Part shown: positions 2,954 to 25,900 of the stretch, piece by piece | How the letters are laid out: the number at the start of each line of letters is the position of its first letter | Position numbering within the stretch: position 1 is the first letter of the stretch | Source of the DNA: Negaprion brevirostris | Taxonomy: Eukaryota | Assembly (NCBI GenBank): GCA_030324005.1 | Contig: JARDVH010000137.1 | Location: forward strand, 10,163,462-10,227,461 | DNA length: 64,000 nt | Direction of reading: 5' to 3' | The notes under the pieces: model-generated | Database searches by the model: none | Seen by the model: the letters and a program-made list of their open reading frames with translations, nothing else | Told to the model about the DNA's origin: nothing | Made by a program: the position numbers and the translations under genes

Positions 2954-3023
2954 TCAGTTCACTTTAGCGGCTGATTTGTCATTTGTTTTGGTTGGCTTCA
3001 GTTTGACATTTGCAACAGCTTCT
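2954..3023 (-). CDS. BAIAP2: Terminal coding exon 14: EAVANVKLKPTKTNDKSAAKVN* (WH2-like tail)
   Basis: Strong acceptor ttctctctcctctacag|A GAA...; VKLKPTKTND resembles IRSp53 VQLKPTVTND; TGA at 2954-2956. Confidence 0.9.
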
Positions 3024-5540
3024 CTGTAGAGGAGAGAGAAAGTACGTTAATACAAGGGATAGTTCAGAGGAACACAGCAGTGACACCATGACAGTACGGC
3101 TTGCAAGAGCTCAAGGTGCCCATGAGTAACTGTGAATATTGGGAACGAAAAAAAGGGTGTGGTCTGCTCATTAGAAATAGAAAATGACTTTCTACAGCTA
3201 CTTGGGAGTTAATAAACTGCAGTTTTAGAACCCTGATTTCTGTAAGAATTCTTACATTGTGCTGAGATGAGAACTATATTTTCTTTTAATGTTTGAGGTT
3301 TTATAATAATCTATTTTAAGGTTCTCTGAAGAAAAGTTGGGGTTTTTATTGCTCTTCCTGGGATACCCAAGTCACTTGCACAGTTAGATGGCAAGATTGC
3401 GGTTCCCTGAACTCTGTCCAATACTGCTCATGAACTAGCTGCAAAGTGTGCAGGAACTGCTGACACAGACTGGCTCTTTGGTTTCAATCCATGCTTTCTA
3501 ACCTGTGCTCTTGCTCTCTGACACAAAATGTTTCTGAATTAGCATCACATCTGATTATAAAGAAAACTTGAACTAAAATTTATATTAGATTTCTTTAGGC
3601 AGATAGATTTCTGCTTGGAGATATTTCTATTCAATCTTTAAATTACTACAATTTTGATGCCTAATTCACATTAACCTGTGGGCTAGGTATAAGAATCAAT
3701 CATTACAGAATGCAAGTTTCAGAAATGCACTTGCATTTATTTGCTTAAAAAAAAATCTGGATTTGAAACTAGATGAAATCTTTAATGTGAATTCTCTGAA
3801 AGACATCAGCTGAGCATCATGACGTCAGATCGTAGACTGCAATTAATGCCTGAAGCCTGCACATACTCCTCTTCTGTGACACATCTGCTCTTGCCGTGCT
3901 GAANNNNNNNNNNNNNNNNNNNNNNNNNNNNNNNNNNNNNNNNNNNNNNNNNNNNNNNNNNNNNNNNNNNNNNNNNNNNNNNNNNNNNNNNNNNNNNNNN
4001 NNNNNNNNNNNNNNNNNNNNNNNNNNNNNNNNNNNNNNNNNNNNNNNNNNNNNNNNNNNNNNNNNNNNNNNNNNNNNNNNNNNNNNNNNNNNNNNNNNNN
4101 NNNNNNNNNNNNNNNNNNNNNNNNNNAAACATCAGCTTATTTTCTGGGACAAAAGATAGACCAAGTTTATATATTGGTCAGTGCATGCTTGGAGGGCCAA
4201 AGGCCTGTCCCTGTGCTGTAATTTTCTTCATTCTTTATATGATATATAGATACAAAAGTGAAAAGTAATTAGATAACAAGTCTTTTAAAGCTTTTTCAAG
4301 CATATTTAAGGACTATTCTTTTCTGGCAGTTCCTAATGGGCTCCACTCGGAGTGTCAAATGCAAGCGAGGGAGTACCTTAAAAGGGGTGGACACATGGCA
4401 GAGACCAGCCATACAATACATTTACTGCCAATCAGTTCAGAAGTGGCATTAAATAGTAAACAATTAAATCTGGGAGAATAACAAATCATGGAACACAGCA
4501 CTGTAACAATGTTTTAAAAGGAGCCAGGATTGATTCAGGCTGCAATTATCCTGATAATAAAATTCTGACAATCCTAAAATGGAAATAGAGTTCCAGTTGC
4601 TACATTTGACTTACATTTTGAAAACAATGCAACAATTTCTTGCCAGAATGAAACACAGAAACAGATGGAGCTCAGGACTGTGGAGAAAGTGAGACAGAAC
4701 TTGCCCATTTGTGAAGACACAGTGGGAAATGAATGATTGTCACCAGCAACAGACAAGGTGATAAAAGTCAGACTGGCATATTGAAATGCCAAACTTACTA
4801 ATTTAGAGAGGCCTTATATGTGGCAGAAGTTTAAATTCAAAACCTTTCAATCTCGGCATCAGAACTGCAATGAAAAAAATTCAGTCGATTTGTACCTATA
4901 ATTGTAAAACTCTGGGAGGGAAATCAAACGACACAGCACTAAGCTCAGATATACCATAATTAACATAAAAGCAAAATTTTCACCAACTTATTACCAATAG
5001 ATGAAGGACCTCCCTCATTCAATGGTTCATTCAATGGTTCAGTATTATCAATGGATTGGCTGATCCAAATGGATCAAAGCCTTAACCACTGGCCCAAAGG
5101 ACATTATGGGTTGGGAAGAGGAAAGCCAATCTGCTCACCATTCAGAGGGAAGGCGGCAGGTGAAGATACGAAAAGCACAGCACTGGGCTTTGCTTTGATG
5201 CTTCCAGCTGTGAAATGCTTGCCAACCTTCATTATCAAAGCTTTCAGCTCAGTAAAGGCCAGAGAGTAATTGAAACCTGTGGAATCAATCTGTCCAAACG
5301 TTCCAGAAAGGACAGGAGCCGGAGAAATAAATGGCATTCAGGAAAAAATGTTAACATTTAAGATAAATGTTATTGCACAGTGCCAACTCATTTGAAAATC
5401 TAATACCAGCATACCAGAAACCCTGCTGATTTTACAAAGCAATATTTAAAAGCCAAGAACTTCCCACAGAAGTGGTGGAAAAATAAAATGAAATAATTAA
5501 GTTAGTTTCAGAAGATAACCCTGACACAAAAATTAAATTA

Positions 5541-5804: not shown

Positions 5805-6368
5805 TGAAGATTTAATACCCATGCAAACAGCTGTTTGGGGCATTTTATTCAGAAAGAGAACCATCCTGCAGCAACGTGACCTCAATTTCGATGCTAACTG
5901 CCCAATATTGAATCAAGCAACTGACTAACCTGGCTTACAAAAGGAACACGCTGCGGATGCTGGGACTCTTTAAAACAGAAATAAGTAGTACTCAGCAGGT
6001 CAGGCAGCATCTGTGGAAAGAGAAACAGAGTTAATGTTTCAGGTNNNNNNNNNNNNNNNNNNNNNNNNNNNNNNNNNNNNNNNNNNNNNNNNNNNNNNNN
6101 NNNNNNNNNNNNNNNNNNNNNNNNNNNNNNNNNNNNNNNNNNNNAAAGAGAAACAGAGTTATTGTTTCAGGTCGGATAGGTCATTGACCTGAAACGTTAA
6201 CTCCGTTTCGCTCTCCCCAGATGCTGCCTGACCTGCTGAGTATTGCAGGCATTTTTCTTTGGTTTTATAGCTAAATTTGACTTTGTTGGTTTTTGCCCCT
6301 TCCTGTTACTTTGAACTTAATATTTTAAAAGCTTGATTTATGATTTAGTGAAAAAGTGTAATTCTTAC

Positions 6369-6403
6369 TTCAAAGAGAGTCTTGAATGATTGAACTCCGG
6401 GCC
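6369..6403 (-). CDS. BAIAP2: Exon 13 (35-nt micro-exon): GPEFNHSRLSL(K)
   Basis: Boundaries ctcattcttcctag|GGC...AA|gtaaga. Phase 0/2 and 35 nt bridge exon 12 to the terminal exon, as the human GLDDYGARSMS exon does. Sequence similarity is low. Confidence 0.75.
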
Positions 6404-14848: not shown

Positions 14849-15047
14849 CTGNNNNNNNNNNNNNNNNNNNNNNNNNNNNNNNNNNNNNNNNNNNNNNNNN
14901 NNNNTAGACGTCATATTGTTTTGGAAGCTGAGGTGGTGTAGGAAGCTTTGGTTTAAGATCGGGCTGGCCTGTGGTCTGATAGTCCGCAGGATGTGAATTT
15001 GAAAGGTCACCATTAGGCACTAATGAAATATCCTGACCCATCATGCG
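14849..15047 (-). CDS. BAIAP2: Exon 9 (199 nt including a 53-N gap), linker: RMMGQDISLVPNGDLSNSHPADYQTTGQPDLKPKLPTPPQLPKQYDV...
   Basis: Boundaries aatttcag|CGC ATG...CAG|gtgagc. It resembles IRSp53 RMSAQESTPIMNG..., and its length gives the phase 1 that exon 10 requires. Partly hidden by Ns at 14852-14904. Confidence 0.85.
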
Positions 15048-17056: not shown

Positions 17057-19169
17057 GACATACTTATTAAATCTGAAGAACTTTACAGAATATCAATGCA
17101 CTGAAAGATAAAAACCAATGAACATAAATTAGACCAAAATTAATTCAATCTCAAAACAAACCCACAGATACCAGTATTCCTACTGAAATCTTTGCAAAGA
17201 TATTTTAATTATAGTGTGAATAACTGGTCAGTATGCCCCAGTCTTACTGGGGCAAGATTAATGGAAATCACTGTTAAGGTAGACAGTGACTGACAACTTC
17301 AATTCATGCTTGCATTAGAACTTAAAAATTATGCATGGTGTACATTGTGCAGATTAATAAATGTGTTGTAAATCAATCTCCTTGCAGAATGTGTGGCACC
17401 ATGCAATTATTTCTCAGATAGGTTTTGGGTCGCAAATTGTTTGACATCTGCTGTCATTGCCACTCACTGATTAGCTATTGGGAAGCATTATTCAAGTACA
17501 ATTAAATCAGTTATTTTTCTCTTGCTACTGTAATAAAGAACTTGGTATTAGCAACGTCAAGCTAGGCCAACTTAACTGGTTGGGTCTTAACTAGTCTAGG
17601 CTCGAGTGTTCCAATTCTTAGAGCTATTGCAGTACACAGTTTATCCTTGAAAACACTATGCAGCAATGGGGAAATGGTGAAAGGATCAGCTAGACATCTG
17701 TTAAGTCCAGTTTCACAATAAGCACAGATCATTTATCTCATTATTGCAGCAGCACCCAAGTTCTACCTATTGGTTAAACAGTTGAGCGCTGTTGATTGTA
17801 TCCAGAGTCTTTTCCAGTGGAATCAAGCCATAAAAGTTACATTTTGACCTTGATTTGATAGATTTGAAGACAATTCCATAGCCGAGTAATACCAATGATA
17901 TGAACTGAATTATAAAGTGCGCACATGAAACCTCAGTACTAAAAATGCTTAATTTGACAAGCTCCTCTAGTGCACCAGTCACTAATTCCATCCATTACTA
18001 TTAGAATACCTCAGATTAATTCAGATCAGTTGCTGCGGTTGTCGAACAAATCAATAACCAGGACATCAACTACTCCCAAGAATAAGGAAGAATATGAAAA
18101 CTCACAACCGCGAACTACTACCAACCAATTTCCAATAGACAATCTGTCAAACATGAAACTACAGTTGCAGTCTCCCAGCTGCAAGATAATAGGGTAAAAG
18201 GCTAGGTATTGGCTTATTAAGAAGGGGACTGAAGAGAAAGAATCAATACATAAATAGTTTTGATATTCAGAATGTTAGGTAGTTCACTATAAATTGATTT
18301 GAATTTAATTAAGATATATAACTGCAATAGTGTTGGGAGAAGAAACACAAACTATTCAGTGAATAAGAAAGTGTTAGTTTAGAGACTGGTGTTTGTTAAT
18401 TGCGTAAACCTGTATTGCATCTACAACTGCCAGTTGCAGTGCATTAATAAACCTTAACAACATTTCACAATTCTTCTTTTATGTAAGTGCAATGCCACTT
18501 ATTATGACTTCATCAGCACTGACTTTATGGGATTACTGAAGGAGGTTAATTCAGCTTAATTACATAAAAGATTGCATCCACATTAAAAGTAAATTTTCAG
18601 TCTCATAAGAGTTGCTGTTACTTCCAGTTGATCAGGGTCCCAGAAAAATCTCTAGGGATAGAAATCCTCCAGAAGAGAACATGTGACCAATTTCAGGGGG
18701 AAAAAAACCTTGGTATATAAAGGAAATCAAATAAATTCAGCAAGACCTTGTTTCTCAATATATGCTTAAGGAACTTATCTAACTCACTGTCCCTAACCCA
18801 TGCCACCTCCCATCATATAATATGTAATGAGTGGGAAGAGATGAAGGAATTCCCTCCACAACTCCCTGTATTAGCATAAGTGGTGGTGTTGTTGAAAACG
18901 ATTAAATCCAATTTGGACTCTGGTAGGCAGAACAGGGAAGCCCTCTAGTTGATATGTGGGCATGATGTTTTACTGTCACATTGCTTCAAAAACAATAGTA
19001 TAATTAGATAAACCGAGTGGCAGCATTAAACGAGAACACAAAATACTACCTTTATATTTCACAAGGATTCTATTCATGAATAAAAAGAGATTAATGTATT
19101 CACGCCATTTAACAAAATTAGGACAGTTTCAAACACACTAAACTGACTGACAAAAAAATCAATACTTAC

Positions 19170-19421
19170 AGGACCTTGACCCAATCCACCTCCACCAACA
19201 AAAGGTGCAAGTTCTGGTGGTACTGGGAGAGGTTTAGCACCTGGAATGGGGTCCGATATAATCAGCCCTGATTTGGTGGTAGCAACGGGTTCAGAGATAA
19301 GGGTTCCTCCATTGCCTGAAGACATCTGCTGCACCAATGACAATGCACGGTCAGGTATTTTGGAGGGATCACTGCAGGACTGTTGCCAGCCAGGAAGCTT
19401 TTGTGTTATCATATCCTTGCC
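19170..19421 (-). CDS. BAIAP2: Exon 8 (252 nt, phase 0/0): end of IMD plus CRIB-PR motif, GKDMITQKLPGWQQSCSDPSKIPD...GLIISDPIPGAKPLPVPPELAPFVGGGGLGQGP
   Basis: Boundaries ttttaacag|GGC...CCT|gtaagt; ISDPIPGAKPLPVPPELAPF is the Cdc42-binding partial CRIB/proline-rich motif characteristic of BAIAP2. Confidence 0.96.
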
Positions 19422-19634
19422 CTGTTAAAAGAACAAAACAACTTAGAGACCTCTTCAGATGAATCAATCCTTCAATGTTTTTAATTTAAACAAATTGAGG
19501 GACAAAAATCTAATAAAGGACATTGTTATACAATTATTAATATTCAAGACAAAGTTGAGAAGAAGTAAAACTCTGATAAAAGAAGCCATATCATTAAAAC
19601 ATATTCAATGTGTCTGCAAAATATAATTGCCTAA

Positions 19635-20140
19635 TCTGAACCCATTGCTACCACCAAATCAGGGCTGATTATATTGGACCCCATTCCAGGCGCTAAACCT
19701 CTCCCAGTACCACCAGAACTTGCACCTTTTGTTGGAGGTGGAGGATTGGGTCAAGGTCCTGTAAGTATTGATTTTTGTCAGTCAGTTTAGAGTGTCTGAA
19801 ACTGTCCTAATTTTGTTAAAAGGCCCGAATAATTTAATCTATTTTTATTCATGAATAGAATCCTTGTGCAGTATAAAGATAGTATTTTGTGCTCTCACTT
19901 AATGCTGTCACTCGGTTTATCTAATTATACTATTGTTTTTGAAGCAATATGACAGTAAAACATCATGCCCACATATCAACTAGAGGACTTCCCTGTTCCG
20001 CCTACCAGAGTCCAAATTGGTTTTAATCGTTTTCAACAACACCACCACTTATGCTAATACAGGGAGTTATGCAGGGAATTCCTTCACCTCTTCCCACTCA
20101 TTACATGTCATATGATGGGAGGTGGCACAGATTAGGGACA
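19635..20140 (+). repeat. Inverted duplicate of 18788-19295 (3' half of exon 8, its donor and 382 nt of intron 8)
   Basis: Hand alignment to the reverse complement of 18788-19295 gives 33 substitutions and one 2-nt gap (~93% identity); the spacer is 339 bp. Confidence 0.97.
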
Positions 20141-20400
20141 ATCCATTTGTATACAGCCATGGCTGTTGATTGTGTTTCACAGCTTAAGGAGTCAGAGGTT
20201 TACAGCATAAGCCCTTGAGCCCAACTTGTCCATGCCATTTTTTTTAAACCCCTAAGCTAATCCCAATTGCCCGCAATAGAGTCAGCTGAACCATTTCCAA
20301 TTGTCTATGCACCTTGAGGCATATAACTTTGAAAATGCAAGTTATTCTGCATGTGTCAGATAATCTGCAAATTTTTAAAATTAAGGTAACTTCACTCCGT

Positions 20401-21827: not shown

Positions 21828-21980
21828 CCTGCTGTGGTATACCATGCTATTCTTGGCAACTGCACACTGCTTTTCCACCAGAAAGCAGTACCGCCTACGT
21901 TCTTCACTCAATGCCGTTTTGTAACCACTTCCAACATGGCTCTCCAGATCAGATTGCTTTTTGCTTATTGTCTCCACAAA
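21828..21980 (-). CDS. BAIAP2: Exon 7 (153 nt), IMD: FVETISKKQSDLESHVGSGYKTALSEERRRYCFLVEKQCAVAKNSMVYHSR
   Basis: Boundaries ctctgtag|TTT...AGG|gtaagt; contains the EERRR(F/Y)CFLV signature of I-BAR proteins. Confidence 0.96.
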
Positions 21981-25751: not shown

Positions 25752-25900
25752 ACCGTGGCACTGTGGCCGTCATGCTGCAGTCATTCCATGATTCACTGTC
25801 CATCAGGGACAGTTACTGTATACTTACCGTGGCACTGTGGCCGTCATGCTGCAGTCATTCCATGATTCACTGTCCATCAGGGACAGTTACTGTATACTTA
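25752..25900. repeat. Perfect tandem duplication of a 74-bp unit
   Basis: accgtggcactgtggccgtcatgctgcag...gttactgtatactt starts at 25752 and again at 25826 with no mismatches. Confidence 0.95.

Follow-up and report, generated by a model that had tools for sequence, protein, structure and literature searches.

When half an exon and its splice donor are copied in inverted orientation into the intron just upstream, does the copy regulate the gene, or is it a scar that the gene tolerates? The question is raised by a 64,000-nucleotide stretch of contig JARDVH010000137.1 of the shark Negaprion brevirostris (hereafter the window), in which IRSp53/BAIAP2 lies on the minus strand. The initial annotation had described a reverse-complement copy with 33 substitutions and a 2-nt gap, about 93% identical to its template and 339 bp away from it. 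Self-comparison of the window gave the same counts: the two arms align over 508 columns at 93.11% identity, with 33 mismatches, a single gap of 2 nt at 19152-19153 and a spacer of 339 nt (Table 1). They form by far the longest and closest inverted pair of the window, the remaining pairs being interspersed repeats at 70-95%. The layout on the transcript was also as described, with the antisense arm coming first, in intron 7, the acceptor and 126 nt of exon 8 in the loop, and the other 126 exonic nt, the donor and 382 nt of intron 8 in the stem.

Table 1. Positions (in the window) of the inverted arms, their junctions and the surrounding exons of IRSp53/BAIAP2.
Feature	Position	Strand	Remarks
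Sense (template) arm	18788..19295	-	Last 126 nt of exon 8, its donor, 382 nt of intron 8
Inverted copy, antisense arm on the transcript	19635..20140	+	In intron 7, transcribed first; junction microhomologies included
Likely copied core within the intron-7 arm	19639-20127	+	From junction analysis
Loop, 339 nt	19296..19634	-	Last part of intron 7 with the acceptor, then the 5' 126 nt of exon 8
IRSp53/BAIAP2 exon 8, 252 nt, phase 0/0; 8th of the constitutive coding exons	19170..19421	-	I-BAR end, linker, CRIB-PR
Exon 7, 153 nt, phase 0 donor	21828..21980	-	From protein mapping and boundary reading
Exon 9 start, phase 0 acceptor	14907..15047	-	Continues into 53 N (14852-14904)
Perfect 34-bp helix spanning the exon 8 donor (predicted)	19154..19187	-	18 exonic and 16 intronic nt; -58.1 kcal/mol
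Donor-like motif at the stem foot	18782..18790	-	Its GT (18787-18786) directly follows the predicted stem as the first unpaired dinucleotide
Target-site quasi-palindrome, left half	19626..19638	+	Junction-1 microhomology: final 4 nt shared with the template
Quasi-palindrome, right half	20128..20142	+	9-nt exact inverse of 19630-19638; 4 more pairs past a 2-nt bulge
Junction-2 microhomology	within 20128..20142	+	9-nt template match

BAIAP2-like shark proteins, of which Mustelus asterias XP_078081844.1 is the closest, suggesting a carcharhiniform shark, map exon by exon onto the minus strand from about 23 kb past the window end down to about position 2957, and the domain order I-BAR, CRIB-PR and SH3 present in the gene identifies it as IRSp53/BAIAP2. 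The 84-aa translation of exon 8, read from 19421 to 19170, aligns with the last part of the I-BAR domain (1y2o 215-249, where the crystallised construct has its 35 C-terminal residues) and with the CRIB-PR peptide (4js0_B). In the human protein CRIB-PR is reported as residues 260-291 (PMC6351565), and the same article backs the functions that had been attributed to the motif, namely Cdc42 binding and SH3 autoinhibition. The stem half of the exon is identical to M. asterias at 42 of 42 positions, and a genome search for CRIB-bearing exons (11 of 11 candidates scored) matched exon 8 and its copy only.

Because the boundaries of exons 7, 8 and 9 are all phase 0, a skip of the 252-nt exon would be in frame, as had been proposed. 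It would remove CRIB-PR together with about 23 residues of the I-BAR domain as delimited by Pfam (IMD, 15-235 in the Mustelus protein, in which exon 8 starts at residue 213), so that no clean CRIB-less isoform would result. An AlphaFold model of the Mustelus protein was left out, its mean pLDDT being 44.8. Among 71 cartilaginous-fish proteins (of 74 examined), 70 contain exon 8 and one is an 87-aa fragment; none of the 71 joins exon 7 to exon 9, in a sample obtained mostly with an exon-8 query and from species that may lack the arm. A protein search with exon 9 yielded five clusters from eight candidates, all of them containing exon 8 and none new to the set.

Some further features of the gene were recorded. 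Just before the 53 N of exon 9 (14852-14904) the sequence lacks one Gln that is present in other sharks. An alternative 15-aa exon within the I-BAR domain, located in intron 2 beyond the window (L012:2719-2769), occurs in many shark and ray isoforms and is absent from the aligned Callorhinchus and bony-vertebrate proteins. Short 3' exons at 6368-6403 and 2957-3034 (minus strand) include an alternative C-terminus known from other shark isoforms.

When the arm sequence was searched against the shark's own genome (2.69 Gb, DNA search, 40 of 807 candidates scored), only the two arms themselves matched, the other 39 matches of the query being to a flanking repeat at about 20173-20250. This agrees with the view of the arms as unique gene sequence, although an absence of matches in this type of search is no proof of rarity. 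A foldback or TIR transposon was rejected, given that the arms are host exon sequence, that the scored candidates include no dispersed copies and that the outer flanks carry no direct repeat.

The junctions suggest how the copy arose. Three of the differences between the arms, at 18797, 18799 and 18800, probably belong to the target site, beside the junction and outside the copied core. With the core delimited as in Table 1, the insert sits on the axis of a quasi-palindrome, with template matches of 4 nt and 9 nt at its two ends: 19630-19638 and 20128-20136, which flank the insert symmetrically, are exact reverse complements of each other, and an inverted 9-mer was common to random pairs of 30-nt windows of the gene in 80 of 20000 trials. 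An inverted copy of nearby unique sequence and, as inferred here, microhomology at both junctions are hallmarks of template switching or repair. Palindromes stall replication forks or get cut, and template-switch repair leaves microhomology. To judge from the sequence, the insert is likely a template-switch (FoSTeS/MMBIR-type) or repair insertion at a short palindrome. The palindrome would have stalled a fork or been cut, a 3' end would have primed on the opposite strand via the 4-nt match, and about 490 nt would then have been copied before return via the 9-nt match. The inverted duplications described in human CHM and MANBA likewise have junction microhomology (PMC8756506, PMC6549551).

Two other origins were considered and set aside. 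Derivation from an RNA ending at the donor-like motif was rejected, as exon 9 does not follow the copy and microhomology accounts for the boundary; the copy is also unlikely to be an exon of an antisense gene, since by eye no acceptor-like tract lies just upstream on the plus strand. As to age, the arms differ at 30 of the 489 core positions, or 6.4% after correction and about 3.2% for each arm, and repeat copies in the gene lie 12.9% from their family majority, indicating an event that is old but younger than most of those repeats. The pedigree mutation rate of 7e-10 per generation given in PMC10587355 is not convertible to years for this event. A protein search with the 51-aa reading frame of the copy provided no age either, the 8 of 12 candidates that matched all being ordinary exon-8 read-through fragments from other vertebrates.

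The background of inverted pairs was evaluated in a sample of 141 pieces (1,233,414 non-N bases), counting pairs of at least 100 bp within 5 kb. Of 176 pairs, 149 were repeat-derived, 36 of these within 1 kb. Three other pairs reached at least 200 bp and at least 90% identity with a spacer below 1 kb, all abutting N gaps; one gap-free pair of 200 bp at 98% has a spacer of 1473 nt and is mostly repeat. No other gap-free inverted pair of unique sequence and comparable size was found in the 1.23 Mb sample. Pre-mRNA duplexes are thus common in this genome, and clean gene-derived ones of this size are rare. A genome-wide class of such pairs (2.6 per Mb, CI 0.5-7.5) was downgraded, as all three members abut N gaps, and the estimate of 85-340 chance exon overlaps depends on assumed exon numbers and on these three pairs.

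The three N-abutting pairs (L139:8102-8998, L086:2861-3929 and L109:3704-4704; 205-351 bp, 91-92%, inner ends at N gaps) may be artefacts, or else genuine hairpins at which the assembly broke; no comparable direct pairs were found in the sample. Elsewhere, a short-period tandem array lies beside an inverted block of about 120 bp (L127:5261-6308), and positions 25752-25900 of the window hold a 75-bp tandem duplication at 100% identity, either recent or an assembly artefact. Repeats were labelled SINE and V-SINE, which we presume them to be.

On the minus-strand transcript the arms are predicted to fold into one long stem (-963.9 kcal/mol for 1431 nt), consistent with the hairpin of about 500 bp initially proposed, in calculations that ignore proteins and kinetics. 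The donor, said to be perfectly complemented, falls within a 34-bp perfect helix. The longest perfect run in the stem is 47 nt, or 112 nt when G·U pairs are counted; more than 50 perfect nt are needed in vivo according to Solnick and Lee, as cited in PMC2275289. Since the antisense arm and 126 exonic nt precede the donor, the stem is predicted to be zipped before the donor is transcribed. In equilibrium folding of prefixes of the growing transcript, about 121 arm-arm pairs were present when the donor emerged, and donor pairing was 0.97 with the arm versus 0.64-0.74 without it; predicted pairing of the acceptor region was unchanged by the arm. In silico, a stable stem covers a splice site on the transcribed strand, a feature of hairpin-induced skipping of the CHM/MANBA type. 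The transcribed strand folds 53 kcal/mol better than the opposite one, and, of the windows compared, that coding for CRIB ranks near the top in pairing (0.93 of perfect), while 19056-19115 is the weakest (0.72 of perfect).

The predicted stem contains 28 exonic A's, 14 of them recoding. Its six exonic non-Watson-Crick pairs are two G·U, two U·U, one C·A with the A in the intron and one A·A at a silent site, none of the six placing an exonic A opposite C. An A opposite C is common at site-selective ADAR sites without being universal. The effects of ADAR and DHX9 on RNA duplexes are treated in a review (PMC7404189). Besides the true donor, the 4122-nt intron has five donor-like motifs, one of which is that at the stem foot; were the latter used, 382 nt including an early stop would be added. 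A search against Rfam returned no family at threshold and two sub-threshold chance matches. On the minus strand at 19760-19790, the inverse of the copied donor, judged by eye, resembles an acceptor: it has an AG and, about 20 nt before it, a sequence like a branch point, but its pyrimidine tract is poor. It may be a decoy acceptor within intron 7.

The 33 substitutions comprise 21 transitions and 12 transversions and include CpG decay. Exon and intron have diverged alike (6/126 versus 27/380; Fisher p 0.41), and both amino-acid differences sit in the copy, at CpG sites. All selection tests on the arms were post hoc. On the transcribed strand, 17 of the 21 raw transitions yield G·U and 4 yield A·C (17:4, p 0.008), a skew equalled by 2 of the 129 other pairs with at least 15 transitions. 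The local null for the G·U share, derived from 33 repeat copies of three families in the gene, is 0.53 (bootstrap 0.45-0.60), and one family (12 copies) displays 36 A>G against 13 T>C changes. Without the three junction letters, G·U, A·C and transversions stand at 14:4:12 versus 9.9:8.8:11.3 expected, so that A·C is depleted and transversions are not. The excess of G·U over A·C (14:4) has a one-sided p of 0.028 against the local null, and of 0.042 with one cluster collapsed (13:4). The transversion control and the junction correction thus weaken the raw 17:4 skew as a sign of selection.

Pair-breaking changes lie closer to the donor than G·U changes (median distance 75 nt versus 140 nt), with p 0.006 raw, 0.030 after junction correction and 0.12 with clusters collapsed. 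Of 17 pair-breaking changes, twelve lie within 19043-19212, and the best-fitting centre is 19163, beside the donor (label permutation p 0.009, calculated before removal of the three junction letters). Some clustering of the differences (p 0.036) inflates the uncollapsed tests. We regard the G·U skew and the donor-proximal pair-breaking as two weak hints of selection on the RNA strand.

Which reading fits these data best? We incline to that of a tolerated scar, with likely editing and leaky skipping and with exon 8 likely still present in most mRNAs, because the junctions are palindromic with microhomology, the copy decays as if neutral (CpG changes, exon and intron alike, transversions as expected), the exon, the only CRIB-bearing one found, stays constrained, and close inverted pairs are common in this genome. 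An effect on the RNA is plausible, given that human inverted duplications cause skipping and that the stem is predicted to be zipped in advance. The duplex would form in part of the transcripts, ADAR would likely edit it at exonic A's, and some leaky skipping or retention would likely follow, while protein coating, helicases and the strong donor, all established knowledge, would rescue the remaining transcripts. Several points weigh against a tolerated scar: the predicted duplex is unusually strong and pre-zipped, its stem would in practice exceed the in-vivo requirement of roughly 50 nt (PMC2275289), a useless insertion might be expected to have been purged, and there are the G·U skew, the donor-proximal pair-breaking, the scarcity of equally skewed pairs and the lack of a comparable gap-free unique pair in the sample. 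It is very improbable that the locus instead reflects an error of assembly or two haplotypes placed next to each other. Gaps are frequent in the assembly, with 20 N runs in the window, and all three similar pairs of the sample adjoin N gaps, but at this locus the nearest N is more than 2.3 kb away, the junctions are palindromic, and a divergence of about 6% with CpG decay and 21 transitions to 12 transversions far exceeds the diversity of 0.002 reported for the epaulette shark (PMC10587355). The earlier argument from about 7% divergence against an assembly duplication therefore holds, and on the sequence evidence the inverted duplication is real, old and gene-derived.

The built-in cis-antisense switch of the initial annotation fared less evenly. 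Physically it is plausible, in view of the donor pairing and the human skipping cases; that the scar was kept by selection, because the stem tunes donor use or editing, we consider doubtful. Such an element would throttle full-length IRSp53 by skipping, retention or use of the out-of-frame stem-foot donor, or would recode CRIB-PR. In its most elaborate version, which we hold to be equally doubtful, a repair scar would have been domesticated in a shark lineage as a self-antisense splice and editing regulator: the arm would zip the CRIB-PR half-exon before the donor emerges, G·U changes would preserve its pairing distally, with a loosening around the donor, and the structure would determine what fraction of transcripts undergoes normal splicing, skipping, diversion to the out-of-frame stem-foot donor or recoding in the Cdc42/SH3 switch. 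The G·U skew (raw and corrected), the better folding of the transcribed strand, the pre-zipped geometry, the well-paired CRIB-coding window, a donor-like motif placed exactly at the stem foot and the natural precedent of Gria2 R/G (PMC3553983) all point this way. Selection on pairing should, however, have removed transversions too, and these are as frequent as expected; the skew may reflect strand-biased mutation, as the one repeat family suggests, although the three families together give only 0.53; the tests were post hoc; and microhomology also accounts for the boundary at the donor-like motif. With repair-like junctions, an exonic arm no better kept than the intronic part, no exonic A opposite C, no exon 7-9 join in the (biased) set of 71 proteins and a skip that would damage the I-BAR domain, the built-in switch itself is conjectural. 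Somewhat less probable again is a mildly harmful hairpin, fixed by drift, in which pair-breaking changes near the donor were then favoured because they let U1 in. The concentration of such changes in 19043-19212 and the weakest-paired window (19056-19115) fit this erosion, but the donor is still enclosed in a perfect helix of 34 bp, collapsing clusters weakens the signal to p 0.12, and deleting the arm would be the easier fix. Intronic nuclear duplexes in the vertebrate soma are generally edited or degraded, not diced. Perfect matches to the exon are found for 34 of the 106 possible 21-mers of the arm; the duplex would nevertheless be an intronic, nuclear one, Rfam gave no family at threshold, and we hardly credit the locus as a source of endo-siRNAs against the gene's own mRNA.

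If the copy is a tolerated scar, and the spliceosome defeats a pre-zipped duplex of 500 bp, the locus offers a natural test of RNA structure versus U1 in vivo; if the structure has been recruited, it shows an editing or splicing element arising in one step from a repair error. Human inverted duplications of this type, when new, silence exons and cause disease; the shark gene, which is single-copy, has a diverged one that includes the donor of a conserved exon. A literature search, with most subscription journals beyond its reach, found no earlier paper on this shark locus.

Among known systems, the closest parallel is a 1,752-bp intragenic inverted duplication in CHM that leads to skipping of exon 12 (PMC8756506). 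As described there, an inverted copy of exon and intron sequence lies near its template, with junction microhomology and a predicted pre-mRNA hairpin, and the loop is of 274 nt, compared with 339 nt in the shark. The CHM allele differs in being new, identical and pathogenic, in covering the whole exon and in having the copy downstream, whereas the shark copy, with a divergence of about 6%, lies upstream and extends only over the 3' half and the donor, the effect of its hairpin being predicted. In MANBA, a 13.1-kb intragenic inverted duplication with skipping shown in cDNA (PMC6549551) shares the template-switch origin with microhomology and a hairpin proposed to force skipping; unlike the shark locus, it is Alu-mediated, spans several exons and causes disease. 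The Gria2 R/G editing hairpin spans the exon 13 donor and, like the shark stem, is an exon-intron duplex that includes a splice donor, coupling editing and splicing in Gria2 (PMC3553983). That hairpin is highly conserved and site-specific, with demonstrated regulation, whereas the shark stem is about 500 bp long and duplication-derived, with editing predicted. Inverted Alu pairs, for which loop-out exon skipping has been reported (bioRxiv 10.1101/2025.03.07.642063), are likewise fixed inverted repeats in pre-mRNA able to promote skipping, but both of their arms are intronic transposons with the exon looped out, while the gene-derived shark arm would pair with exon and donor directly. In silico the shark hairpin would work like one of the CHM type, and what appears to be new here is an insert at the axis of a short quasi-palindrome, with putative microhomology at both junctions.
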